From the IMG/VR virus record IMGVR_UViG_3300002542_000292: a stretch of 64,000 bases of DNA. One strand, written 5' to 3'. Position numbers and translations under genes: made by a program. Below the pieces are notes generated by a model. It did no database searches, was not told the origin of the DNA, and worked only from the letters and a program-made list of their open reading frames with translations. This DNA is from a virus. Its lineage: Duplodnaviria; Heunggongvirae; Uroviricota; Caudoviricetes. This document shows positions 13,466 to 22,248 of the stretch, piece by piece. Every line of letters starts with the position of its first letter. Position 1 is the stretch's first letter.

Positions 13466-13542
<77 letters not shown>

Positions 13543-13574
13543 AAACACAAGATTATCTGTTTGGGTGATGTACG

Positions 13575-13742
13575 ATGCAAGAGAATTCTGTGGAAATGGA
13601 TGGGGAAAAACGCAATCAGGAACGCAGGGAAGCCATTCCCAATGCTTTTTGGAATATCGTGGGATTCATCTTTTTCGCAGTGACAATTACGGTATTCGCT
13701 TTCCTGTTTGTCGTGACTCAAGGATTTGGTTATCTGAAATGA
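13575..13742 (+). CDS. Small membrane protein (55 aa), not in the ORF track (below its 60-aa floor)
   Basis: GGGTGA RBS; translation MQENSVEMDGEKRNQERREAIPNAFWNIVGFIFFAVTITVFAFLFVVTQGFGYLK has one TM helix; fits exactly between two tRNAs. Confidence 0.4.
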   Translation: MQENSVEMDGEKRNQERREAIPNAFWNIVGFIFFAVTITVFAFLFVVTQGFGYLK

Positions 13743-13748
13743 CAATGT

Positions 13749-13826
13749 AGGGATGTAGCGCAGCTTGGTCAGCGCACCTGATTTGGGATCAGGGGGTCGC
13801 AGGTTCGAATCCTGTCATCCCTACCA
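13749..13826 (+). tRNA. tRNA-Pro(TGG), CCA encoded
   Basis: Acceptor AGGGATG/CATCCCT, anticodon stem CCTGA/TCAGG with loop TTTGGGA, T-arm GCAGG-TTCGAAT-CCTGT. Confidence 0.8.
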
Positions 13827-14094
13827 TACATAACACATTCAATCATCTGACAAAGTACAGGGTCAAAGATGTTCAGTTTGGTAAAAACGTTGCGTAGCAG
13901 ACGGAAGCGAATTTGGGGTTGAGTATGATTCATCCCTGGAAAGAACAACGGAACCCTGTATATTTTCTACACGATTTGAGCAAATGCATTCCCAATCGTG
14001 GAGTAATCATGCCATACAAATTTTCGACAAGGGAAAATGACAAGGGAAAATGAAGTAAAGAATGCTGTATTACGTCCGAACGGAGGAATGTACC

Positions 14095-14478
14095 TTGAAA
14101 AAGATGGCATTGGTGCTGATTATCCTAACCTTATTGGCATCCGGATGCGGTTCTGCAGATGTCGGACCCGAACCTGCACCTGCACCCATTGCCGAACATG
14201 AAGTCAAGCATGAGACCGTTGGAACGGCAACTTCTCCTACTGTATACGATGACCCGACGACTTACAAATATAATTCGTCAGACGTTCGGTTTGTCGTCGT
14301 AGACTACCAACACATCAGCGACGGTACCAAAAGCGGAATCACGATCAAGACGTTGGTAGACGTCGAAACTCGGGTCATGTACGTCCTCATGGAAAAGTTC
14401 CAGGCGGGATATGGTCTTAGCATACATCCAATTTTGGACGTGGATGGCAGTCCTCTCATTTATGACAAGGATTTCTGA
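14095..14478 (+). CDS. Lipoprotein (TTG start; signal MKKMALVLIILTLLASGC)
   Basis: GGAGGAA RBS, K-K n-region, hydrophobic core and LASGC lipobox. Confidence 0.6.
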   Translation: MKKMALVLIILTLLASGCGSADVGPEPAPAPIAEHEVKHETVGTATSPTVYDDPTTYKYNSSDVRFVVVDYQHISDGTKSGITIKTLVDVETRVMYVLMEKFQAGYGLSIHPILDVDGSPLIYDKDF

Positions 14479-14885
14479 TACGGTGGTTGTGGTGGAATGG
14501 CAGACACGCCAGATTGTGGATTTGGTGTCCGAAAGGACGTGAGGGTTTGAGTCCCTCCAATCACCCCATTACATATGTGCTGGCTTAGTTCAGATGGTAG
14601 AACATCCGCAGAGAACCTATTTTGGACTTCCAAATTCGCACCGGCATCCCGCAGGATTTCATAGGATTTTACATCTCCTGCTTGTGCTGCAAAGTGGAGT
14701 GCCGTATTACCGTAGTAATATTCGACTTCTTCTGTATCCGCTCCGAGGTCGAGGAGCAAACGGAGTACATCGTGTTTCCCTTCAGACGCAGCATACATCA
14801 ACGGTGTGATTCCACGCAACACGGGAATACATCGGGATTGATGTTCACGCCGTTTGCGTGGAGTTTCTCGATTTTTCCACGTCAC
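14460..14885 (-). CDS. Ankyrin-repeat protein
   Basis: GITPLMYAASEGKHDVLRLLLDLGADTE and GNTALHFAAQAGDVKSYEILRDAGANLEV are canonical ANK repeats; GTG start. The 3' ~120 nt is antisense to tRNA-His, so the true C-terminus may lie earlier or a frameshift may be present. Confidence 0.65.
   Translation of the reverse strand: MTWKNRETPRKRREHQSRCIPVLRGITPLMYAASEGKHDVLRLLLDLGADTEEVEYYYGNTALHFAAQAGDVKSYEILRDAGANLEVQNRFSADVLPSELSQHICNGVIGGTQTLTSFRTPNPQSGVSAIPPQPPYQKSLS
14482..14568 (+). tRNA. Non-canonical tRNA-His(GTG) with a type II (long variable arm) body; G-1 and C73 present; CCA encoded
   Basis: G-1 then acceptor GTGGTTG/CAATCAC, D-stem GTG/CAC, anticodon stem CCAGA/TTTGG with loop TTGTGGA, 15-nt variable arm GTCC-GAAA-GGAC, T-arm GAGGG-TTTGAGT-CCCTC, C73 then CCA. 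Confidence 0.55.
14579..14604 (+). pseudogene. Orphan tRNA 5' half (acceptor plus D-arm, GCTGGCTTAGTTCAGATGGTAGAAC) with no matching anticodon, T-arm or 3' acceptor strand
   Basis: Canonical D-arm GTTC-AGATGGTA-GAAC read directly; downstream sequence cannot complete a cloverleaf; lies inside the antisense ankyrin ORF. Confidence 0.4.
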
Positions 14886-15109
14886 TTTGGGCTACAGCTT
14901 CGGCGAGTTCTTCATGTTCCTGGTACATTTCAAACATTCACAACACTCCCTTACATAAATGCAGCATATATCAATTGTGACATTCGAAACTGCATTTGGT
15001 CAATAATTAAACATGTGCTTCACAAGAAATCCATCCGCATGTATATCTATACCCATATATTGACTATGCATGCGCATCTGTGATAAAATAATGAATAGAT
15101 CTGACATTT

Positions 15110-15185
15110 GGGCCGAAAGCTAATCTAGTGAAAGCGCCCGCCTGAAAAGCGGGAGAGTCTGGGGCGGAACCAGATCGGCCCACCA
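15110..15185 (+). pseudogene. Degenerate tRNA-like element (Phe GAA-like) with an aberrant T-loop and a 2-bp D-stem
   Basis: Acceptor GGGCCGA/TCGGCCC, A73 plus CCA, perfect anticodon stem CCCGC/GCGGG with loop CTGAAAA, but T-loop GGCGGAA lacks the TTC signature. Confidence 0.4.
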
Positions 15186-15199
15186 TAAACGATACGATT

Positions 15200-15348
15200 C
15201 ATCGGATGTACAGTGAAGGTAAAAGGCTATGCGCAAGCCCGGTGAGGGGGAGAGAGAAACCAACAGTCTGCAGGGATTCTAGATTAACTGCAGTGCGGGA
15301 GTAACGCCCTACAATGAATAGCTCACCACCTTCACTGTACATCCGATG
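15200..15348 (+). ncRNA. Structured element: 21-bp perfect inverted repeat (CATCGGATGTACAGTGAAGGT ... ACCTTCACTGTACATCCGATG) closing a 107-nt interior with internal palindromes; candidate ncRNA or miniature mobile element inside the tRNA array
   Basis: Arms at 15200-15220 and 15328-15348 are exact reverse complements; interior carries the palindrome CTGCAG...CTGCAG; no ORF. Confidence 0.45.
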
Positions 15349-15444
15349 TAGATGCATTGTCCAGAAGCTTTGATAGGTGAAGCTGACCCCATGCACGCGG
15401 GGCGAAGGTGAGTTCAAGTCTCCCCTGGACAGCCCTCAAGTTAT

Positions 15445-15522
15445 AGGGGTATGGAGTCGATTTGGTAAGACGCCCGACTGTTAATCGGGAGCATGCAGGT
15501 TCGAATCCTGCTACCCCTGCCA
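15445..15522 (+). tRNA. tRNA-Asn(GTT), CCA encoded
   Basis: Acceptor AGGGGTA/TACCCCT, anticodon stem CCCGA/TCGGG with loop CTGTTAA, T-arm GCAGG-TTCGAAT-CCTGC, G73 plus CCA. Confidence 0.75.
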
Positions 15523-15523
15523 T

Positions 15524-15597
15524 GGGTCCGTAGTGTAACGGTAGCACAGCACCCTTTTAAGGTGTCAGTTCAGGTTCGAATCCTGGGGGACCCACCA
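15524..15597 (+). tRNA. tRNA-Lys(TTT), CCA encoded
   Basis: Anticodon loop CTTTTAA, T-arm TTCGAAT, acceptor GGGTCCG/GGGACCC with one mismatch. Confidence 0.7.
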
Positions 15598-15610
15598 GAA
15601 AATACAACGT

Positions 15611-15686
15611 GGCGGGTTAGGCAAGAGGCTAAGCCGCAGGACTTTCAATCCTGTATCGGAGGGTTCGATTCCCCCACCCGTCACCA
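15611..15686 (+). tRNA. tRNA-Glu(TTC), CCA encoded
   Basis: Acceptor GGCGGGT/ACCCGTC, anticodon stem CAGGA/TCCTG with loop CTTTCAA, T-loop TTCGATT. Confidence 0.65.
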
Positions 15687-15698
15687 TAAACAGTTTTA

Positions 15699-15793
15699 CA
15701 GACCGGTATGGGGCGGCGTCACGCAAGTTCGATTCCCGCTCGCGAAGAGAATGGGTGACGTCGTCGGTGGTTCGAATCCGCCCCAGCCTGCCA
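15699..15793 (+). other. Unresolved tRNA-like element (~95 nt): good T-arm GGTGG-TTCGAAT-CCGCC and a G-CCA tail, but no clean 5' acceptor partner; an extra internal TTCGATT motif. Possibly an intron-containing, Sec-like or fused/degenerate tRNA
   Basis: 3' end CCAGCCT-G-CCA matches the tail style of neighbouring tRNAs; the 5' strand AGACCGG pairs only 5 of 7; internal GTCAC/GTGAC helix. Confidence 0.3.
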
Positions 15794-15794
15794 T

Positions 15795-15878
15795 AAGGGT
15801 GAGAGGCTCAAAGGCGAAAGGTAAGCCGCGGGGCTCCAAATCCCGTGCCAAGAGGTTCGATTCCTTCCACCCTTGCCA
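15795..15878 (+). tRNA. tRNA-Trp(CCA) with an expanded 15-nt D-loop, 84 nt, CCA encoded
   Basis: Perfect acceptor AAGGGTG/CACCCTT, anticodon stem CGGGG/TCCCG with loop CTCCAAA, T-loop TTCGATT; D-arm GGCT-CAAAGGCGAAAGGTA-AGCC is abnormally long. Confidence 0.6.
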
Positions 15879-15879
15879 T

Positions 15880-15954
15880 GCGGAATTAGTTTAGTCGGTA
15901 AAACGACGGCTTTCCAAGCCGTAGTGACGAGTTCGAATCTCGTATTCCGTTCCA
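15880..15954 (+). tRNA. tRNA-Gly(TCC), CCA encoded
   Basis: Acceptor GCGGAAT/ATTCCGT, anticodon stem ACGGC/GCCGT with loop TTTCCAA, T-loop TTCGAAT. Confidence 0.75.
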
Positions 15955-16040
15955 TTTCGCATTCGCTCAACAGATATTCGCTCAACCACATTCGTTCAAC
16001 TTATATTCGCTCAACCTATATCCGCTCAACTTCCTTTCTA
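15955..16040 (+). repeat. Five tandem copies of a 13-15-nt unit ATTCGCTCAAC(NNN) between tRNA-Gly and tRNA-Cys
   Basis: CATTCGCTCAACAGAT / ATTCGCTCAACCAC / ATTCGTTCAACTTAT / ATTCGCTCAACCTAT / ATCCGCTCAACTTCC read directly. Confidence 0.7.
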
Positions 16041-16044
16041 CTAC

Positions 16045-16130
16045 GCAGGTGTAGCGAAGAGGTCAAACGCGGCGGATTGCAAATCCGCTCCTGCAAAGGT
16101 TCGTAGGTTCGAATCCTACCACCTGCTCCA
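16045..16130 (+). tRNA. tRNA-Cys(GCA)-like with an unusual 14-nt variable arm (86 nt), CCA encoded
   Basis: Acceptor GCAGGTG/CACCTGC, perfect anticodon stem GCGGA/TCCGC with loop TTGCAAA, T-arm GTAGG-TTCGAAT-CCTAC; the variable region TCCTGCAAAGGTTC is long for Cys. Confidence 0.55.
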
Positions 16131-16133
16131 TTT

Positions 16134-16211
16134 GTAGCTGGCGGGAGGTCGGTATCTCACGAGGGTTCATAACCCTTGGCAACTCGGTTCGACTCCGAGG
16201 CGCAGCAACCA
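16134..16211 (+). tRNA. tRNA-like with CAT anticodon (Met/Ile2 type); acceptor stem not resolved, one extra nucleotide before CCA
   Basis: Anticodon stem GAGGG/CCCTT with loop TTCATAA and T-arm CTCGG-TTCGACT-CCGAG are clean; the 5' GCTGGCG versus 3' GCGCAGCA region does not pair canonically. Confidence 0.35.
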
Positions 16212-16220
16212 AATCTACGC

Positions 16221-16295
16221 GGTTCTTTCGTTCAGTGGTTAGGACGCTGCCCTGTCACGGCAGAGACGGGGGTTCGATTCCCCCAAGAACCGCCA
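16221..16295 (+). tRNA. tRNA-Asp(GTC), CCA encoded
   Basis: Acceptor GGTTCTT/AAGAACC, D-arm GTTC-AGTGGTTAGGAC-GCTG, anticodon stem CTGCC/GGCAG with loop CTGTCAC, T-arm GGGGG-TTCGATT-CCCCC, G73 plus CCA. Confidence 0.8.
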
Positions 16296-16299
16296 TACA

Positions 16300-16373
16300 T
16301 CGGAATTGGTATAATGGTCAGCACACGGGGATTTGATTCCCGTAGTTTGGGTTCGAATCCCAAGCCCCCCGCC
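16300..16373 (+). tRNA. tRNA-Gln(TTG)-like; 5' acceptor strand unresolved (3' strand is GCCCCCC-G-CCA)
   Basis: Anticodon stem CGGGG/TCCCG with loop ATTTGAT, T-arm TTGGG-TTCGAAT-CCCAA; no G-rich 5' partner found. Confidence 0.35.
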
Positions 16374-16392
16374 AAATATGCTACTCTCTTCC

Positions 16393-16418
16393 AGGGACGG
16401 ACACCATGTTCCGTCCCT
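16393..16418 (+). terminator. Hairpin AGGGACGGA-CACCATGT-TCCGTCCCT closing the tRNA array
   Basis: 9-bp perfect stem; no T-run, so it may be a processing site or attenuator. Confidence 0.35.
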
Positions 16419-16419
16419 G

Positions 16420-16788
16420 ATGCATATGCGGTCATTTCAATCGATTCGGGAGACGGGTATTCATGGGATACAGGTATCCCTTGTACAATTGGTAGGAGAT
16501 TTTGTATGTGCAGATGTAGTATGTAGCGGAAATCCGAGAGTGCTCGAATTTTGGGGCGTGGATACCAAGACAGGTGAAGTTCTGTTATCATTCAGTCTAT
16601 TCCCCAAAGGAACAAACCAACATTGGGAAATTTTGGCTGTCGTACATGCGTTGCAATATTTTCTGACGAAAATCATCTATACAGATTCGGTGATAGTTCT
16701 TGCTTGGGTGAAGAACAAGAAGATTTCCACAGACTTGGTGCGCGATGATTCGACGGAAGAACTGTGGCAAAAACTGAAATGGTTGTGA
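16420..16788 (+). CDS. RNase H-like (type 1 ribonuclease H) protein
   Basis: VCSGNPRV...GTNQHWEILAVVHALQYF matches the RNase HI pattern (GNPG...TNNxAELxAxxxAL); the ORF-track start at 16333 lies inside a tRNA, so the first ATG after the array was used. Confidence 0.5.
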   Translation: MHMRSFQSIRETGIHGIQVSLVQLVGDFVCADVVCSGNPRVLEFWGVDTKTGEVLLSFSLFPKGTNQHWEILAVVHALQYFLTKIIYTDSVIVLAWVKNKKISTDLVRDDSTEELWQKLKWL

Positions 16789-16925
16789 CACAATTCTTGC
16801 ACCAATCGGGTTCTTAAATGGAATACGCACAAGCACGGCGACATCAAGGCAGACTATAACAGGAAATAATATGCACATGGTCTTCCAAACAAAGTGTGAA
16901 GAGAATATCTTCAAACACCGCAGAA

Positions 16926-16955
16926 TTGACACGAAATGCAACTTTCTGGCATAAT
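16926..16955 (+). promoter_or_regulatory. Promoter TTGACA-N18-CATAAT
   Basis: TTGACA 16926-16931, CATAAT 16950-16955, upstream of 16998. Confidence 0.5.
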
Positions 16956-16997
16956 GGTGGTGTACAGTCGTATACCAATGTATAGGAGGGTATTTTT

Positions 16998-17264
16998 GTG
17001 AGTCACTTCATCGACCAACAAGAACAACAGACCAAGCAAGCGACGCCGGTCATGTCCGTGGGCAGTTGGCTGGTCGTCTTTTTGGTGACGGCCATCCCAT
17101 TCGTCAATCTGATCATGCTGATTATTTGGGCTTTCGACAAGGAAAATCCGAACCGTGCGAACTACGCAAAGGCAACGCTCATCTTCATCGTCATTGCTTC
17201 CATTTTCGCATTTTTCTTGGGAATGTCCTTCATTTCGCTCCTCATGTCGGCGTACAGCGCATAG
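16998..17264 (+). CDS. Small membrane protein (88 aa, 2 TM), GTG start
   Basis: AGGAGGG RBS; hydrophobic segments. Confidence 0.55.
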   Translation: MSHFIDQQEQQTKQATPVMSVGSWLVVFLVTAIPFVNLIMLIIWAFDKENPNRANYAKATLIFIVIASIFAFFLGMSFISLLMSAYSA

Positions 17265-17283
17265 CATGTAGGAAATACTATTT

Positions 17284-17317
17284 GGACCACATGCCAAAAT
17301 GGTATGTGGTCTTTTTT
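17284..17317 (+). terminator. Hairpin GGACCACAT...ATGTGGTC followed by TTTTTT
   Basis: 8-bp stem plus 6-T run directly after the 16998 gene. Confidence 0.6.
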
Positions 17318-17467
17318 ATTGTGACATTTTGTTTTCACAAATTACGCATTTTATGAAACACATCAAACCGTTTGTGTGTCCATATTCATGAATTTTCTGT
17401 GCAATCTATATCTTTTTCCTTTTGTGCGTTGCAGCATGATCACGTCTACCAATATATAAATAATTTT

Positions 17468-17503
17468 AAAGACTGCAAGCGTTTTGCACTTGCAGTCTTT
17501 CTT
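17468..17503. terminator. Hairpin AAAGACTGCAAG-(9 nt)-CTTGCAGTCTTT
   Basis: 12-bp stem immediately 3' of the minus-strand gene 17508-18062. Confidence 0.6.
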
Positions 17504-17507
17504 TACT

Positions 17508-18062
17508 TCATACGCCTTCCCTGTCTTTGATCGACCCAAGATCCATCCGCAACATGTTGTAGATCATCTGTGGCGCATACCGGTCGAAACCGTATTTGTA
17601 GCAGATTGCCAAGATGAGTGCTTCGTCGAAGTTCGTGCAACTTTCATGCAGTGCTTTGCCAAATACCACCGGATAGTACAAAATTTCATTGTTGCCGCCG
17701 ACACGGGACTCCGCTTCAATGATTGCAATGTCGTCGCTGACGATCGTGCAATTGATCACTCGGCGGTAGTCCTTTTCGACGAGTTTTTCGATTTCGGATT
17801 CCTTCTGCCGTCGGATTTGGTATTCCCTCGCCATGTTGTAGATTTGGGCCCGTTGAAACCGCCAATTTTCTTTCTTCGGTAGTTCTTCATCGAAAAACTT
17901 GTCGATTTCGGTAACGGATTTCAGATCTTTCAGCATATGTACACGCTCCTCGTTCTCACTTTTCATTTTGTTCATAGTCCTCGCTAAAAAGTATACCACA
18001 CATTTGTGCCCCTTGTCAACCGACTTGCTTGATATCAAATATTGACGGTGGTATACGTCCAT
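17508..18062 (-). CDS. Hypothetical protein (184 aa)
   Basis: ORF with a downstream terminator; no motifs. Confidence 0.45.
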   Translation of the reverse strand: MDVYHRQYLISSKSVDKGHKCVVYFLARTMNKMKSENEERVHMLKDLKSVTEIDKFFDEELPKKENWRFQRAQIYNMAREYQIRRQKESEIEKLVEKDYRRVINCTIVSDDIAIIEAESRVGGNNEILYYPVVFGKALHESCTNFDEALILAICYKYGFDRYAPQMIYNMLRMDLGSIKDREGV

Positions 18063-18104
18063 GGTACAATTACACTAGAAGAATGTGTAAGGAGTGTCGT
18101 GCGT

Positions 18105-18767
18105 ATGGATGTGGGTATGCGTGTGTATCATGCTGTACGGAATGGGGATATTTTGCAAATCGAACTGTTGATCAGAGAGTATGGCATCAGTAACAAACAG
18201 CACTATTTTTCGGTCATCGAAATGGTTGCAAAAGACATGCCAGACTATATTGATTTTCTTCTCGAAACAAGAGCAGCAATGTTTCGAAAGGAAGACAAGA
18301 TAGACGCATTGGTTGCAGCTGTTGACTACAACCGCTTAGGACTTCTGCAAAAAATACTGGATGTCTTCCCCGACATCGATCTCAATGCGCACATCAAAGG
18401 AAAGTCTACGGCATTGGCCAGGGCGATACAGAATAATGCCGTAGATGTTACAAAATTCCTTTTGGAGAGAGACGACATCGATGTTGACCGTCGCTACTAT
18501 CGGTATCGGACGTCCCTCATGTTGGCGTTGGAAAGGGGAAGACCAGACATTGCAGAAATAATCGTCGAACGTACCAAGAACGTAAACGCCGCAGACGAAA
18601 ATTGGAACACAGCACTGCATATCGCTTGTAAGAAAGTCTTGTTGCCGATGGCCGAAAAACTGCTTCAAAAGGGGGCCGAAATCCGGCGCAACGGAAGAGG
18701 AAAATTCCCTATCGATCTCGTTCCGAAAAAATTTAAGGCTGAATTTGCACCACTGTTTTCCAAATGA
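18105..18767 (+). CDS. Ankyrin-repeat protein (second copy)
   Basis: ATG 10 nt after GTGTAAGGAGTG; multiple ANK repeats (GKSTALARAIQNNAVDVTKFLL, WNTALHIACKKVLLPMAEKLLQKGAEI). Confidence 0.7.
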   Translation: MDVGMRVYHAVRNGDILQIELLIREYGISNKQHYFSVIEMVAKDMPDYIDFLLETRAAMFRKEDKIDALVAAVDYNRLGLLQKILDVFPDIDLNAHIKGKSTALARAIQNNAVDVTKFLLERDDIDVDRRYYRYRTSLMLALERGRPDIAEIIVERTKNVNAADENWNTALHIACKKVLLPMAEKLLQKGAEIRRNGRGKFPIDLVPKKFKAEFAPLFSK

Positions 18768-18800
18768 GGAGATGCGATTCGCATCTCCTCATTTCATTTT
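18767..18800 (+). terminator. Hairpin GAGGAGATGCG-ATT-CGCATCTCCTC followed by a T-rich tract
   Basis: 11-bp perfect stem. Confidence 0.7.
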
Positions 18801-18802
18801 TA

Positions 18803-18832
18803 TTGACAAAGGCGTTTATTTGATGGTATCAT
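18803..18832 (+). promoter_or_regulatory. Promoter TTGACA-N18-TGGTATCAT (extended -10)
   Basis: Read directly upstream of 18852. Confidence 0.5.
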
Positions 18833-18851
18833 GGAAACGTGAAAAAACGGG

Positions 18852-19883
18852 GTGAAAGTATTGGATGCACAAGATATCTTGTCGATGAAAAGTCCGGGCG
18901 ATTTGTTCAGTCCGGATGTCGCCACGATGAAAACGGAGTACAAGAGGTTGGCAAAAATTTGGCATCCTGACGTACATGACGATCCCGACCTTGCATCCCG
19001 CGTGATGAGCAAGATCAACGAACTCTACGGCGAAGGGATGAGGCTCCTCCAAGAAGGAAGGTGGACAAAGTCCAATTTTGTGCAGTTCCGTTCTTTGGAC
19101 GGCAAGCTGCACAACATTAGCTATCTGGCGGAAATCCCCTTCGAACTCGGCAAATGTTACATATGCAACAGCCTAATCGTGTATGTCGTGAAGTCAGAAC
19201 ACAGGCAGTTCTTCGACAACTGTGCAACACGTGTTGAAAATCTCAAATTCGCCGATCGGAACATGGAATCTGAATTCAGACGGTTCCTGCCGAAGTTTGT
19301 TGGCAAATTTGAGACTTCCGAAGAACTTGCCGTGGTCATGGCAAAGCCGTCCGACTTCTTGTCGCTCAGACACGTGTTGGAGCATTTCGGAGGAAAACTG
19401 CCGGACCGTCACGTGGCGTGGATTCTGAGTTCGCTGTACAACCTTGCGTGCTTTCTGCAGTTCAACGGTATCGTGCACAACGGCATAACGATCGACAGCT
19501 ACTTCATTTCGCCCGCACAACACAACGGCATGCTTCTTGGCGGTTGGTGGTACAGTACGCCTGTGGGCGAAAGGATGTTGGGCATTCCCAAGGACGTGTT
19601 CGACATCCTCACGTTCCGAACCAAATCTGACAAGACGTCCGTCCATGCTACAGATCTCAATTGCATAAGACAGCTTGGAAGGCAACTTCTCGGAGATATT
19701 TCCGGTCGGACTCTGAAAAATAGGACGGACATTCCCCGGCCGATTCTTGATTGGGTGCTCGGCGCATCCACGAATGAACCGATGGAAGAATACGTCGCTT
19801 GGGAAAAAACGCTCGATGCAGGATACGGCAAACGGAAATTCGTCCACATGAACGTGTCCGCTGCCGATCTGTATAAAAAATGA
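18852..19883 (+). CDS. J-domain (DnaJ-like, HPD motif) protein with an uncharacterised ~250-aa C-terminal domain
   Basis: EYKRLAKIWHPDVHDD matches the J-domain helix II-HPD signature; the C-terminal part has no recognised motif; its stop overlaps the next start (ATGA). Confidence 0.6.
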   Translation: MKVLDAQDILSMKSPGDLFSPDVATMKTEYKRLAKIWHPDVHDDPDLASRVMSKINELYGEGMRLLQEGRWTKSNFVQFRSLDGKLHNISYLAEIPFELGKCYICNSLIVYVVKSEHRQFFDNCATRVENLKFADRNMESEFRRFLPKFVGKFETSEELAVVMAKPSDFLSLRHVLEHFGGKLPDRHVAWILSSLYNLACFLQFNGIVHNGITIDSYFISPAQHNGMLLGGWWYSTPVGERMLGIPKDVFDILTFRTKSDKTSVHATDLNCIRQLGRQLLGDISGRTLKNRTDIPRPILDWVLGASTNEPMEEYVAWEKTLDAGYGKRKFVHMNVSAADLYKK

Positions 19884-20827
19884 AATTTTATGAAAGTGAG
19901 GAAACGATTATGGGAAGCGGAAGATGGGACCCCCGACAGTGGGCAAGGTACAGTCAGGCTCACATCCACAACAAGAGTGCCACGAAAGGAATAGGTGGTA
20001 TTTACACGTCAACGTCGCTCAAGGATTTGCTGAATCCGTACAAGGCCATCCGCGAATCCTGCGACTCGGCGGACAATCCGAATTCTACGCCGATTATCAT
20101 CGGCCTTGACGTTACTGGGTCGATGACTCGCGTACTCGATGCCATGGCACGGCAGGGTCTGCCGACGTTGGCAGAAGAAATCTACAACCGCAAGCCCGTG
20201 TCCGACCCGCACATCATGTTCATGGGAATCGGCGATGCTTTCTGCGACCGCGCGCCGCTCCAAATCACCCAATTCGAAGCGGACATCCGCATTGCGGAGC
20301 AACTGACGGATCTCTGGCTCGAAGAAGGCGGTGGCGGCAACGGTTCGGAAGGATACGCTCTGGCGTGGTATTTCGCCGCCTACCATACGAAGTGCGATGC
20401 CATCAACAAACGTGGCAAAAAGGGCTATCTCTTCACCGTGGGAGACGACGGCCCGACGCCGTTCATCACCAAGGAACAGATCAAACATATCTTCGGTGAC
20501 GACGTCTCGGAGGACATTGATGCCAAGGTGCTTCTGCAGGTGGTATCCCGCGATTGGGAAGTGTTCCATCTGACCGTGGAAGAAGGACATACGGCAAGCG
20601 AAGCCGTCAAAAACAGGTGGAAACAGCTTCTCGGCGAACGTGCCGTCACTCTTGCCGACCATACGAAGATGGGAGAAGTCATCGTTTCTCTCCTGCAGGT
20701 ATTGGCCGGAGTGGACAAGGACACGGTGGCGAACAGTTGGGACGGTTCCACGGCAATTGTCGTACGGCAAGCGATCTCCGACCTGACCACACCGAACGGC
20801 GGTTCTGGCGGCCTTGTCAAATTCTGA
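19880..20827 (+). CDS. von Willebrand factor A (vWA) domain protein
   Basis: MIDAS-like IIGLDVTGSMT (DxTGS); translationally coupled to the J-domain gene. Confidence 0.55.
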   Translation: MKFYESEETIMGSGRWDPRQWARYSQAHIHNKSATKGIGGIYTSTSLKDLLNPYKAIRESCDSADNPNSTPIIIGLDVTGSMTRVLDAMARQGLPTLAEEIYNRKPVSDPHIMFMGIGDAFCDRAPLQITQFEADIRIAEQLTDLWLEEGGGGNGSEGYALAWYFAAYHTKCDAINKRGKKGYLFTVGDDGPTPFITKEQIKHIFGDDVSEDIDAKVLLQVVSRDWEVFHLTVEEGHTASEAVKNRWKQLLGERAVTLADHTKMGEVIVSLLQVLAGVDKDTVANSWDGSTAIVVRQAISDLTTPNGGSGGLVKF

Positions 20828-20982
20828 TTCTCGAAGGCAGCAAAGGGAGATGTCCATCGGGACATCCCCTATTTTATGTACGCAATTTCAAGCAATCTCT
20901 CCCATCCGCCAAATACGTAGTATTAGTCACTTTCCCTTGTCCGAAAGACTTCTCTTGACGGTTCCAACAATCGGGTGGTATA

Positions 20983-22248
20983 ATGGACTATATGGGAGGG
21001 ATTCTTGTGAAAAAACAAATCAAAGTCGTTATAGGTGCCAATTTCGGTGATGAAGGCAAAGGTCTCACCACCGAATATTTTGCAGTCAGGCATCCGAACA
21101 CATTGGTGGTCCGGTTCAACGGTGGTGCTCAGGCTGCCCACACTGTAGTTCTACCGGATTCCCGAGAACACGTATTTTCTCACTTCGGAAGTGGCACCTT
21201 GGACGGAATTCCCACATATCTGAGCCAATTCTTCCTGATCAACCCCATCCTGTACGTGGAGGAAAGGGAGAAGTTGGAACAGAAGATGAAAGATCAAAGA
21301 ACTCTCCCTGTATTATATGTGCATAGAAACGCCTTCGTTTCCACTCCGTACGACATGATGATCAACCAAATTGCGGAACTGAACCGTGGGGAAGATCGTC
21401 ATGGCAGTTGCGGATACGGAATCAGTGAAACGGTAGTGCGTTCCGAACATGAGAAATACAGAATTTCCGTTGCGGACTTGTATGACTCTAGGTTGCTTCA
21501 GGAAAAACTCCGAAGCATAAAGGAGGAATATGTGCCACGAAGATTGAACGAACTTGGATGTCGATACATACCTGAAGATTATACCTTTGGTTTGACTTCC
21601 CATGAAGTATTTGACGCTTTTTTTCATGACTGCGACATCTTCAAAAGAACCGTATGCATCACGGACGACAGCATCTTACATGCGTTCGACAGCATCGTGT
21701 TCGAGGGTGCGCAAGGACTTCTTCTCGATCAGAATTTGATCGAATATTCGCCGCACATCACGCATTCGAATACAGGTATCGACAACGTAGTGGAAATAAT
21801 GCAAAACATGGATTTCGACTACGAAATGGAAGTGGTGTACGTCACTCGTTCCTACATGACGCGCCACGGTGCTGGTCCGTTCCCGACGGAGACCACTGAT
21901 AAACCGTATCGGAAGATGTGGGACCTCACCAACGTGCCGAATCCGTGGCAAGGCAGTCTCAGATTTGGCATCCTGGATGTAGATTTTTTGCACAAAAACG
22001 TTATGAAGGACGTTGCCAAAAACACGCTTCCGCATGTACGAAATTCGCTTATGGTGACATGTCTCGACCAAATCGACGACAAGGCCAAATACATCGTGGA
22101 TGGCAAGTTCGTGGAAACTGGCATCGACGAATTCCTTGGACGCCTACGGAACAAATTCGGTGCGGACTGGCACATTTATCAAAGCTGGGGACGCACAAGA
22201 AATACAGTAAAATGCCAAGACCTTGTTGCATTGGGGGAGAAAGTATGA
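20983..22248 (+). CDS. Adenylosuccinate synthetase family protein (divergent PurA/PurZ-like)
   Basis: N-terminal P-loop GANFGDEGKG and FNGGAQAAHT align with the PurA GxQWGDEGKGK and GGHNAGHT motifs (Asp13 and His41 equivalents kept; N38 to Q, H37 to A). Confidence 0.7.
   Translation: MDYMGGILVKKQIKVVIGANFGDEGKGLTTEYFAVRHPNTLVVRFNGGAQAAHTVVLPDSREHVFSHFGSGTLDGIPTYLSQFFLINPILYVEEREKLEQKMKDQRTLPVLYVHRNAFVSTPYDMMINQIAELNRGEDRHGSCGYGISETVVRSEHEKYRISVADLYDSRLLQEKLRSIKEEYVPRRLNELGCRYIPEDYTFGLTSHEVFDAFFHDCDIFKRTVCITDDSILHAFDSIVFEGAQGLLLDQNLIEYSPHITHSNTGIDNVVEIMQNMDFDYEMEVVYVTRSYMTRHGAGPFPTETTDKPYRKMWDLTNVPNPWQGSLRFGILDVDFLHKNVMKDVAKNTLPHVRNSLMVTCLDQIDDKAKYIVDGKFVETGIDEFLGRLRNKFGADWHIYQSWGRTRNTVKCQDLVALGEKV

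Follow-up and report, generated by a model that had tools for sequence, protein, structure and literature searches.

Positions 14482-16419 of the tailed-phage sequence IMGVR_UViG_3300002542_000292 (Caudoviricetes), analyzed here as one stretch of 64,000 nucleotides (nt) that we call the window, hold 14 tRNA or tRNA-like elements, recognized with ARAGORN, Rfam models and reading of the sequence (Table 1). An initial annotation, made from the sequence alone, had described about 13 elements in an array rich in odd bodies. The array is present where it was placed, and every listed member was found; a 5' tRNA fragment and an element with an 8-nt anticodon loop had been omitted. Five members are canonical. 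These (Asn, Lys, Glu, Gly and Asp) fold as ordinary cloverleaves, as annotated, except that tRNA-Asn is only near-canonical with its one extra base and tRNA-Lys has G.G at 7:66. Comparison with other phages assigns six odd members to conserved non-canonical families: tRNA-His, tRNA-Cys, tRNA-Trp, tRNA-Phe, a CAU tRNA and a tRNA-like RNA. The concentration had been called unusual, in agreement with our count of six non-canonical families in 1.9 kb versus at most three in the other loci fetched by pattern, most of which are short, so that co-occurrence statistics are weak.

Table 1. Positions of tRNA genes, tRNA-like elements and other features in the window
Feature	Position	Strand	Detection and remarks
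Five extra tRNA genes	5129-5215, 7294-7461, 13466-13542, 13749-13826		All above Rfam threshold
tRNA-His(GUG), class II body	14482-14568	+	ARAGORN, Rfam 47.3 bits, homologues
5' tRNA fragment (acceptor strand, D arm, start of anticodon stem: GCTGGCTTAGTTCAGATGGTAGAACATCCGC)	14573-14605	+	Read from sequence
Sigma-70-type promoter-like site, TTGACT-18-TAAAAT, extended -10 TG	15060-15089	+	10 of 12 consensus matches, best in region
tRNA-Phe(GAA), non-standard elbow	15110-15185	+	Rfam 44.8 bits; ARAGORN at relaxed threshold only
Long hairpin, perfect 21-bp inverted repeat, 107 nt between arms	15200-15348	+	Between tRNA-Phe and the 8-nt-loop element
tRNA-like element, 8-nt anticodon loop AUGCACGC, mismatched T stem, CCC 3' end	15357-15435	+	Relaxed ARAGORN, tRNA-?(gcac)
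tRNA-Asn(GUU), near-canonical, one extra nt between acceptor and D stems	15445-15522	+	ARAGORN, Rfam 51.6 bits
tRNA-Lys(UUU), canonical except G.G at 7:66	15524-15597	+	ARAGORN, Rfam 58 bits
tRNA-Glu(UUC), canonical	15611-15686	+	ARAGORN, Rfam 55.4 bits
tRNA-like RNA, no regular D or anticodon arm	15700-15793	+	Homologues, covariation
tRNA-Trp(CCA), 11-nt connector after acceptor stem	15795-15878	+	Homologues, covariation
tRNA-Gly(UCC), canonical	15880-15954	+	ARAGORN, Rfam 68.7 bits
tRNA-Cys(GCA), class II body	16045-16130	+	ARAGORN, Rfam 62.2 bits, homologues
tRNA(CAU), initiator-type hallmarks, bulged acceptor	16136-16211	+	ARAGORN tRNA-Met with poor stem; homologues
tRNA-Asp(GUC), canonical	16221-16295	+	ARAGORN, Rfam 66.9 bits
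tRNA-Gln(UUG)-like gene	16300-16374	+	Partial Rfam match, 31.4 bits on 16307-16363, model positions 8-63, no acceptor
10-bp GC-rich hairpin, no U tract	16392-16419	+	Directly after last tRNA-like gene; read from sequence

With default settings ARAGORN called nine genes in 14483-16295: His, Asn, Lys, Glu, a 94-nt "Gly(ccc)", Gly(tcc), Cys, a "Met(cat)" with a poor stem, and Asp. A relaxed threshold added tRNA-Phe and the 8-nt-loop element, the latter with a four-base anticodon. Canonical tRNAs were defined by a full-model match to Rfam RF00005 at its gathering threshold of 29 bits. This model accepts His, Phe and Cys as well as Asn, Lys, Glu, Gly and Asp, and finds no match even at E<=10 on the tRNA-like RNA, tRNA-Trp, 16134-16211 (the CAU tRNA) or the 8-nt-loop element. 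The initial annotation had named an ordinary fold of all members under covariance models as its possible undoing; such models fail with at least four elements, and in His, Cys and Phe, which they do fold, the odd features persist. The tRNA-Sec (selenocysteine) model scored 29.6 bits on tRNA-Trp against a threshold of 47, and neither ARAGORN nor Rfam called a transfer-messenger RNA (tmRNA) in the window. The rule of U54-U55-C56-R57-A58 in the T-loop with G18-G19 in the D-loop is broken by tRNA-Phe only, all other members conforming. The rule of a two-nt spacing between acceptor and D stems and a plain four-way junction is broken by tRNA-Trp, tRNA-Asn and the tRNA-like RNA. Encoded CCA ends most genes of the array, and nine elements have a T-loop-to-CCA(T) ending in common.

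Introns and Sec-like geometry had been offered as explanations of the odd bodies, and neither was supported. The intron mode of ARAGORN gave nothing sensible, and the inserts of tRNA-Trp and the tRNA-like RNA are conserved and base-paired, not excisable. The array has no UCA anticodon, and the acceptor/T stems of His and Cys are 7/5. Error in assembly or sequencing was also ruled out as the source of the oddities. Positions 13500-22000 of the window are 100% identical to a 301,935-bp metagenome contig (ENA ERZ795070 NODE_12), and a Logan contig (8069 bp) and a JGI contig (2940 bp), both spanning the array, match at 100% over their full lengths. Because three independent assemblies agree, and with large neighboring genes intact, the odd sequences are not artifacts.

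The non-canonical families

The initial annotation gave tRNA-Trp a 15-nt D-loop. The D-loop is in fact a normal one of 9 nt on a 3-bp stem, and the extra bases form the 11-nt connector; a 4-bp GGCU/AGCC D stem with a 15-nt loop was ruled out, as homologues are unable to form it. An annotated 84-nt tRNA-Trp of Bacillus phages (Thrax4, TsarBomba and others) aligns throughout with the window gene, and further members were found in Brevibacillus phage Jenst and in several viral and metagenomic contigs. All members share a 7-bp acceptor stem, the connector (11 nt, or 13 nt in Jenst) and a D stem of 3 bp whose 9-nt loop includes GG. Their anticodon arm is normal, with CUCCAAA as its loop, the variable loop has 5 nt, the T arm conserves A.C at 49:65, and position 73 is G. 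Connector positions 4-6 pair with variable-loop positions 4-2. In the window gene 15805-15807 (GGC) faces 15847-15849 (GCC), and relatives carry AAC/GUU, GGA/UCC, AAU/AUU, AGC/GCU and, in Jenst, GAG/CUC. Across six distinct sequences all three pairs of this extra helix change on both sides and remain 100% paired. The whole structure is 95.7% paired versus 80% in shuffles and 44-54% with partners slid by one to three columns, and its score was reached by 0 of 500 shuffles. More distant members pair similarly in a shifted register (further pairs GCC/GGC, and AC/GU versus CC/GG), and a differently spaced pattern retrieved two distant relatives. Covariation thus indicates an extra helix that encloses the D and anticodon arms and would turn the four-way junction into two three-way junctions. 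No earlier description of such an arrangement was found in the literature searched.

In tRNA-Phe all stems are perfect. Its D-loop is AAUCUAGUGAA, without GG, and its T-loop is GGCGGAA, as first annotated. BLAST against sequenced phages gave no match to this gene. A scan for CUGAAAA followed by GGGGCGGAACC, with the D-loop outside the pattern, found six further tRNA-like sequences in viral contigs. The exact D-loop AAUCUAGUGAA recurs in four of these six, and two (L147 and L150) combine the T-loop GGCGGAA with the D-loop AGUUAGUA, which also lacks GG. When five sequences are aligned, pairing in the stems is complete (100%), with 16 of the 20 pairs altered on both sides, and neither loop varies, a pattern indicating that the elbow is rebuilt and under strong selection.

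Bacterial class II tRNAs, those with a long variable arm, are restricted to Leu, Ser, Tyr and Sec. The tRNA-His(GUG) and tRNA-Cys(GCA) of the array lie outside this set, with variable arms that are class II by length (>10 nt) and by their own stem-loop. tRNA-His has G-1 at 14482, a 7-bp acceptor stem (GUGGUUG/CAAUCAC), C73, encoded CCA and a 15-nt variable arm with a 4-bp stem; G-1, C73 and the hairpin arm had been annotated correctly, as ARAGORN and Rfam confirm. Searched against 50,697 phage records, it matched best to tRNA-Leu genes and to an 86-nt tRNA-His(gtg) of Arthrobacter phage Talia1610; a 91-nt tRNA-His in Jenst shares this architecture. Besides Jenst, a pattern scan of IMG/VR gave eight further distinct family sequences: four have long variable arms, one ends at a contig edge, and three (L137, L139 and L144) are tRNA-His(GUG) with a Leu-type D arm and a short variable loop (4-5 nt), which look like class II His genes that lost the long arm later. 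RNAalifold, given six His genes and one Leu gene, returned a class II cloverleaf with a G-1:C73 pair, present in 6 of 6 aligned His-family sequences, and a covarying variable-arm stem. These comparisons identify tRNA-His as a predicted tRNA-Leu body switched to His identity.

In tRNA-Cys the 14-nt variable arm of the initial annotation was recovered by ARAGORN; it has a 3-bp stem, and the gene carries G1:C72, U73 and CCA. Its nearest matches in the phage database are bacterial-type tRNA-Tyr(GUA) genes, from which it differs by GCA and U73, and the tRNA-Tyr of the window (5129-5215) is no close paralogue. When IMG/VR was scanned for GCA tRNAs whose T arm follows a long spacer, the anticodon being part of the search pattern, 15 stretches were returned, from which eight distinct sequences were aligned with the window gene. 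All nine long-arm GCA tRNAs have G1:C72 and U73, and the variable arm is self-complementary in every aligned member.

In both genes the acceptor/T stems are 7/5, with covariation in both stems and no 8/4 or 9/3 split. By the known identity rules, histidyl-tRNA synthetase (HisRS) reads G-1, C73 and GUG, bacterial leucyl- and tyrosyl-tRNA synthetases (LeuRS, TyrRS) need A73, and TyrRS needs U35. The main determinants of cysteinyl-tRNA synthetase (CysRS) are U73 and GCA (PMC5389517). The bacterial HisRS set (G-1:C73, GUG) is complete in tRNA-His, and so is the CysRS set (U73, GCA) in tRNA-Cys. Because identity nucleotides have been switched together with the anticodons, we consider it more likely that both tRNAs decode normally; recoding, which had been proposed for the array, does not sit with these cognate sets.

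A related jumbo-phage contig (IMGVR_UViG_3300009671_000009, 224 kb) carries a 94-nt tRNA-Gln(UUG) with a 23-nt variable arm at 13966-14059, so that class I identity on a class II body recurs in such phages. For class II His or Cys tRNAs in phages, the literature yielded Mukai et al. 2017 (PMC5389517) only, in a search of incomplete coverage that does not prove absence.

Three elements had been described as having acceptor stems that could not be paired. This was borne out for the tRNA-Gln-like gene, whereas in 16134-16211 an acceptor starts at 16136: A1.A72, G2-C71, C3-G70, U4-A69, G5-C68, a bulged G at 16202 in the 3' strand, G6-C67 and C7-G66. The single-sequence fold of this CAU tRNA yields an identical bulged stem. 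Further marks are A11-U24, GGG/CCC in the anticodon stem, A73, CCA and GG at positions 8-9. Homologues of about 80 nt occur in Bacillus phage G (annotated as tRNA-Met), in Enterococcus phages (unannotated), in a Rhodococcus phage and in a Brevibacillus-type contig. An IMG/VR scan with an 18-nt pattern from the acceptor/D region, without the anticodon, gave 61 stretches with 28 distinct tRNA-like sequences, and the anticodon is CAU in 28 of 28. The model for 23 sequences (RNAalifold and pair counts) is 96% paired with 15 compensatory pairs, a result reached by 0 of 500 shuffles. Position 68, opposite G5, is C or U family-wide, A11:U24 is present in 19 of 23 sequences, and CCA is encoded in the window copy and in 4 of the 22 others. 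Two other models, a 7-bp stem GUAGCUG/CAGCAAC without CCA and one with G8 bulged, were less consistent than that of RNAalifold. No Rfam family matched at E<=10.

The textbook marks of bacterial initiator tRNA are a 1:72 mismatch, G2:C71, C3:G70, A73 and A11:U24. Because it carries all of these, the CAU tRNA is read as a putative initiator-like tRNA with a bulged acceptor. It also shares with tRNA-fMet the CAU anticodon and, in the window copy, three G:C pairs. It differs in having A.A where tRNA-fMet has C.A, a bulged base in the 3' acceptor strand and G instead of U at position 8; moreover, the three G:C pairs are not conserved across the phage family, and the Rfam tRNA model gives it no score. 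In the Brevibacillus-type copy (L034, 5852-5922, minus strand; 29.9 bits with the tRNA-Sec model) a 4-nt insert, ACUU, replaces the bulged G, a substitution by which the acceptor irregularity of the family appears variable. The second CAU tRNA of the window (13466-13542) resembles tRNA-Ile2.

The third of these elements, 15699-15793, had been credited with a clean anticodon arm and has none. Its window copy consists of an acceptor with 5 of 7 positions paired, a 7-nt joiner UAUGGGG, a 9-bp stem, here called P (15714-15722 with 15755-15763), a normal T arm and CCA. Stem P encloses a hairpin (loop UUCGAUU) and a conserved 15-nt strand, UCGCGAAGAGAAUGG. Copies were found in Jenst (a partial match, unannotated, between tRNA-Pro and tRNA-Asn), in the viral contig L034 and in a Paenibacillus genome contig, where the copy adjoins tRNA-Pro. 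The acceptor has 6 bp in L034 and Paenibacillus, and its 5' pairing is lost in Jenst. The sequence of stem P is lineage-specific with complementarity kept (compensatory change in 6 of 9 pairs, three lineages), and the strand inside it is invariant as UCRCGAANAGAAUGG. Cloverleaves proposed by ARAGORN were ruled out, since four copies received four different anticodons, as was a UCRC/GUGA hairpin, which the Paenibacillus copy is unable to form. No Rfam family matched at E<=10. The resemblance to tmRNA is one of topology only (an acceptor/T minihelix plus a long helix), and G3:U70 and other defining tmRNA features are missing. Covariation supports the element as a conserved tRNA-like RNA.

Degenerate elements and phage context

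The initial annotation had also raised decay. This applies to the tRNA-Gln-like gene, the 8-nt-loop element, the 5' fragment and partly to the local tRNA-like RNA, whereas the other odd members are conserved with compensatory changes. The Gln-like gene has good D, anticodon and T arms, and its acceptor strands, TCGGAAT and GCCCCCC, are non-complementary. ARAGORN made no call for it on the plus strand even at an 80% threshold, and a single-sequence fold contained no cloverleaf. The phage homologues of its arms are ordinary tRNA-Gln genes, and the gene is probably a chimeric pseudogene. The 8-nt-loop element is probably a pseudogene too. No 3' half was found downstream of the 5' fragment, and the fetched loci contained no homologue of this fragment, of the 8-nt-loop element or of the Gln-like gene in its degenerate form. 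An ankyrin-repeat gene on the minus strand (14460-14937), which shares bases with the end of the tRNA-His region and directly adjoins the 5' fragment, is split into pieces of 112 and 30 amino acids (aa) by gene callers; by our own reading its frame changes at an A5 run and a C3 run. Evidently the tRNA locus has undergone reshuffling. Elsewhere in the window, at 18042-18767, an ankyrin gene is intact.

Among the non-tRNA features of the array, the promoter-like site lies about 20 nt upstream of tRNA-Phe and is suggestive of a promoter; the number of such sites is not above shuffle expectation. The long hairpin gave no Rfam match (E<=10), no phage homologue and no second copy in the window, and the fold of 15183-15445, which holds it, has z = -3.6. 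Candidate identities for it are a processed small RNA and a mobile palindromic element. The spacer that separates tRNA-Gly from tRNA-Cys holds, at 15960-16031, roughly five tandem repeats of a 15-nt unit (ATTCGCTCAAC…), which may serve as a protein-binding array. The hairpin after the Gln-like gene was not flagged as an intrinsic terminator and is possibly the operon end or a processing signal.

The proteins of the window include gyrase A and B, FtsH, class Ib ribonucleotide reductase, adenylosuccinate synthetase (PurA), thymidylate synthase, PhoH and an endolysin-type peptidase, with a weak match to large terminase (E 1e-7). This gene content identifies the source as a jumbo phage, of roughly 302 kb. 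No close DNA-level relative was found among sequenced phages. A neighboring 315-aa protein has seven jumbo-phage relatives (39-55% identity), whose tRNA genes are not syntenic. Because relatives of the individual tRNAs sit mostly in Bacillus, Brevibacillus, Paenibacillus, Enterococcus and actinobacterial phages, the host is probably Gram-positive, with Bacillota likely. Among about 35 window proteins scanned with Pfam and PHROGs, none was recognized as a CCA-adding enzyme, RNA ligase, synthetase or formyltransferase. The tRNA set of the phage reaches beyond the array, with genes for Tyr (class II, as in bacteria), Ser, Thr, the Ile2-like CAU tRNA and Pro.

Related loci contained other RNAs of note. 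A distant relative (IMGVR_UViG_3300036781_000418, 343 kb) has, at 16284-17384, a permuted tmRNA whose tag is ANNSVYALAA and, after it, two UCA-anticodon tRNAs, a sign that this phage may suppress or recode UGA. In Jenst a skipping-rope RNA (RF02924, 67.6 bits; 2466-2543 of the fetched locus, L018) lies about 0.8 kb downstream of the tRNA array.

Origin and use of the odd tRNAs

We favor, as the probable reading, a tRNA operon whose remodeled members are mostly functional and come from conserved phage-borne families. Its starting point is what was observed of the odd families, namely their structures, conservation, covariation and identity elements, from which we infer expression, charging and use in translation. 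Apart from tRNA-His, which lies just upstream, the array would be transcribed as one precursor from the promoter-like site to the 3' hairpin and cut by host RNase P and RNase Z. tRNA-His would have arisen from a tRNA-Leu gene by a change of the anticodon to GUG, addition of G-1 and replacement of A73 by C73, and tRNA-Cys from a tRNA-Tyr-type gene by GUA to GCA and A73 to U73. The long variable arm is kept in both; host HisRS and CysRS would charge them, and their decoding would be normal. In tRNA-Trp the inserted strand would form the extra 3-bp helix with the variable loop and so rebuild the core; in tRNA-Phe a co-conserved alternative pair of D-loop and T-loop would rebuild the elbow. The Gln-like gene, the 8-nt-loop element and the 5' fragment would be decay products of recombination at the locus. 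Being unlike host tRNAs, the rebuilt bodies may escape host tRNA-directed nucleases or sensors while working on the ribosome. Of the reasons considered for the remodeling, a role against host defense, as the initial annotation had proposed, strikes us as the most plausible.

Several points weigh against this reading or parts of it. The 3-bp helix of tRNA-Trp is absent from the single-sequence minimum-energy fold. Because the anticodon loop was part of the search patterns for the Trp, Phe, His and Cys families, their anticodon conservation is in part a product of the search. Support for the tRNA-like RNA comes from three informative sequences, and the window copy, with two A.C mismatches in the inner hairpin and an acceptor weakened to 5 of 7 pairs, may be decaying. 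The three G:C anticodon-stem pairs of the CAU tRNA are found in the window copy and few others rather than family-wide, and its assignment as initiator-like draws on textbook rules of identity. The promoter-like site and the 3' hairpin are matches to a consensus and nothing further, and evasion of host nucleases or sensors, as the reason for the rebuilt bodies, is conjecture.

In a broader and more tentative proposal, the array may be a kit of body-remodeled tRNAs that remain competent for synthetases and ribosome and go unseen by host nucleases, T-box sensors or modification enzymes, with the anticodon-less RNA as decoy or cofactor. The parts rebuilt repeatedly by phages of Gram-positive hosts would then be the core (Trp), the elbow (Phe), the variable region (His, Cys and Gln) and the acceptor (CAU). 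Phage tRNAs are known to rescue infection from tRNA-cleaving defenses, and in the best-fitting published framework they replace host tRNAs that defenses destroy or sense, differing from them at recognition sites (PMC10264068, PMC11464382, PMC13056530).

Some or all of the odd members might instead be decoys or regulators, mimics that bind host tRNA nucleases, toxins, T-box leaders or modification enzymes. The tRNA-like RNA, conserved yet without an anticodon arm, would suit such a role, as would the Gln-like gene, for which standard charging is not possible. Precedents are regulatory pseudo-tRNAs such as B. cereus tRNA-Other (PMC3399842) and some irregular G-1 tRNAs that are charged but unused in translation (Mukai et al., PMC5389517). 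However, complete acceptor stems, identity elements and standard 7-nt anticodon loops, all needless in a decoy, are retained in His, Cys, Trp, Phe and CAU, and Pfam and PHROGs scans of the window proteins identified no nearby partner protein. We regard this explanation as unlikely.

We also give little credence to the view that the odd members are mostly pseudogenes in a decaying island no longer used by the phage. It accounts for the unpaired acceptor of the Gln-like gene, the 8-nt loop and CCC end of 15357-15435, the 5' fragment beside an ankyrin gene split into 112 and 30 aa, the weakened stems of the local tRNA-like RNA and the four elements unrecognized by Rfam. But His, Cys, Trp, Phe and CAU have many divergent phage homologues with compensatory stems and invariant loops, and free decay of these five is unlikely because it would not result in such a pattern. 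Decay fits three or four elements only.

Recoding or mistranslation, with the body deciding the charging so that Leu is inserted at His codons and Tyr at Cys codons, is very improbable: the bodies are clearly of Leu and Tyr type, but position -1 or the discriminator is switched to the amino acid of the anticodon in every family member seen (G-1:C73 in His, U73 in Cys), and the A73 requirement of LeuRS and TyrRS and the U35 requirement of TyrRS count against Leu or Tyr charging. Natural mismatches of body and anticodon do exist, among them allo-tRNAs and G-1 tRNAs with a Thr anticodon that are charged by HisRS (PMC5389517).

Relation to known systems

The array resembles the tRNA clusters of T4, T5, Bacillus phage G and jumbo or huge phages in its dense co-oriented genes, short spacers and many encoded CCA ends. 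The T4 cluster is itself interspersed with small stable RNAs of unknown role. The present array differs from described clusters in that at least 6 of 14 members belong to non-canonical families and two or three are degenerate, a proportion that is not typical. Recruitment of tRNA genes by alloacceptor remolding is known from E. coli experiments, mitochondria and eukaryotic nuclear genomes. Here too an anticodon change goes together with a discriminator change; unlike in those cases, the boundary from class II to class I appears to have been crossed with the long arm kept, and this recurs in many phage lineages.

For irregular tRNAs in phage clusters the nearest precedent is Mukai et al. 2017, who reported allo-tRNAs, (8/4) tRNA-Ser and tRNA-His in alphaproteobacterial phage clusters, and selC* tRNA-Cys (PMC5389517). 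Shared with those tRNAs are long-arm bodies with anticodons other than Ser, Leu or Tyr, including His and Cys, location in phage polycistrons and bulged acceptors. In contrast, His and Cys here have ordinary 7/5 acceptor/T stems, their bodies appear Leu- and Tyr-derived rather than Ser- or Sec-like, and their relatives are in phages of Gram-positive hosts. Moreover, tRNA-His here has G-1 and C73, whereas the 8/4 tRNA-His lacks G-1 and has A73 or U73 (PMC5389517). By inference the odd tRNAs also parallel nuclease-resistant phage tRNAs (van den Berg et al. 2023, PMC10264068; tRNA-Lys of T5 against PARIS, PMC11464382), which are phage isoacceptors unlike the host's at recognition sites with decoding kept. 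Those cases involve changes in the anticodon loop or stem, whereas here core, elbow, variable region and acceptor are changed. The tRNA-Other of B. cereus is likewise a non-standard tRNA-like RNA with a Trp (CCA) anticodon from the Bacillus cereus group (PMC3399842). At 74 nt, with the sequence …CCTCTGATGTGGGTTCAATTCCCGCCATCCACTCCA given by the primers in that paper and no 11-nt insert, it is a separate family, and identity with the tRNA-Trp of the array was ruled out on these grounds.

Standard annotation overlooks genes of this kind (here four by Rfam and two by default ARAGORN) or imposes wrong anticodons on them. The usual explanations of phage tRNA clusters are codon supply and evasion of anticodon nucleases through changes in the anticodon loop. 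In this array the rebuilding affects several parts of the scaffold, and many phages conserve the altered forms. The extra helix of tRNA-Trp and the alternative combination of D- and T-loops in tRNA-Phe touch features held to be near-universal for the L-shape, and the class II His, Cys and Gln genes show that amino-acid identity has repeatedly switched from one tRNA class to the other. If the odd tRNAs work in translation, they would extend the range of tRNAs that synthetases, EF-Tu, RNase P and the ribosome are known to accept, and would offer natural scaffolds for engineering of orthogonal tRNAs. If the remodeling is immune evasion, it would point to host defenses that read the body of a tRNA and not its anticodon.

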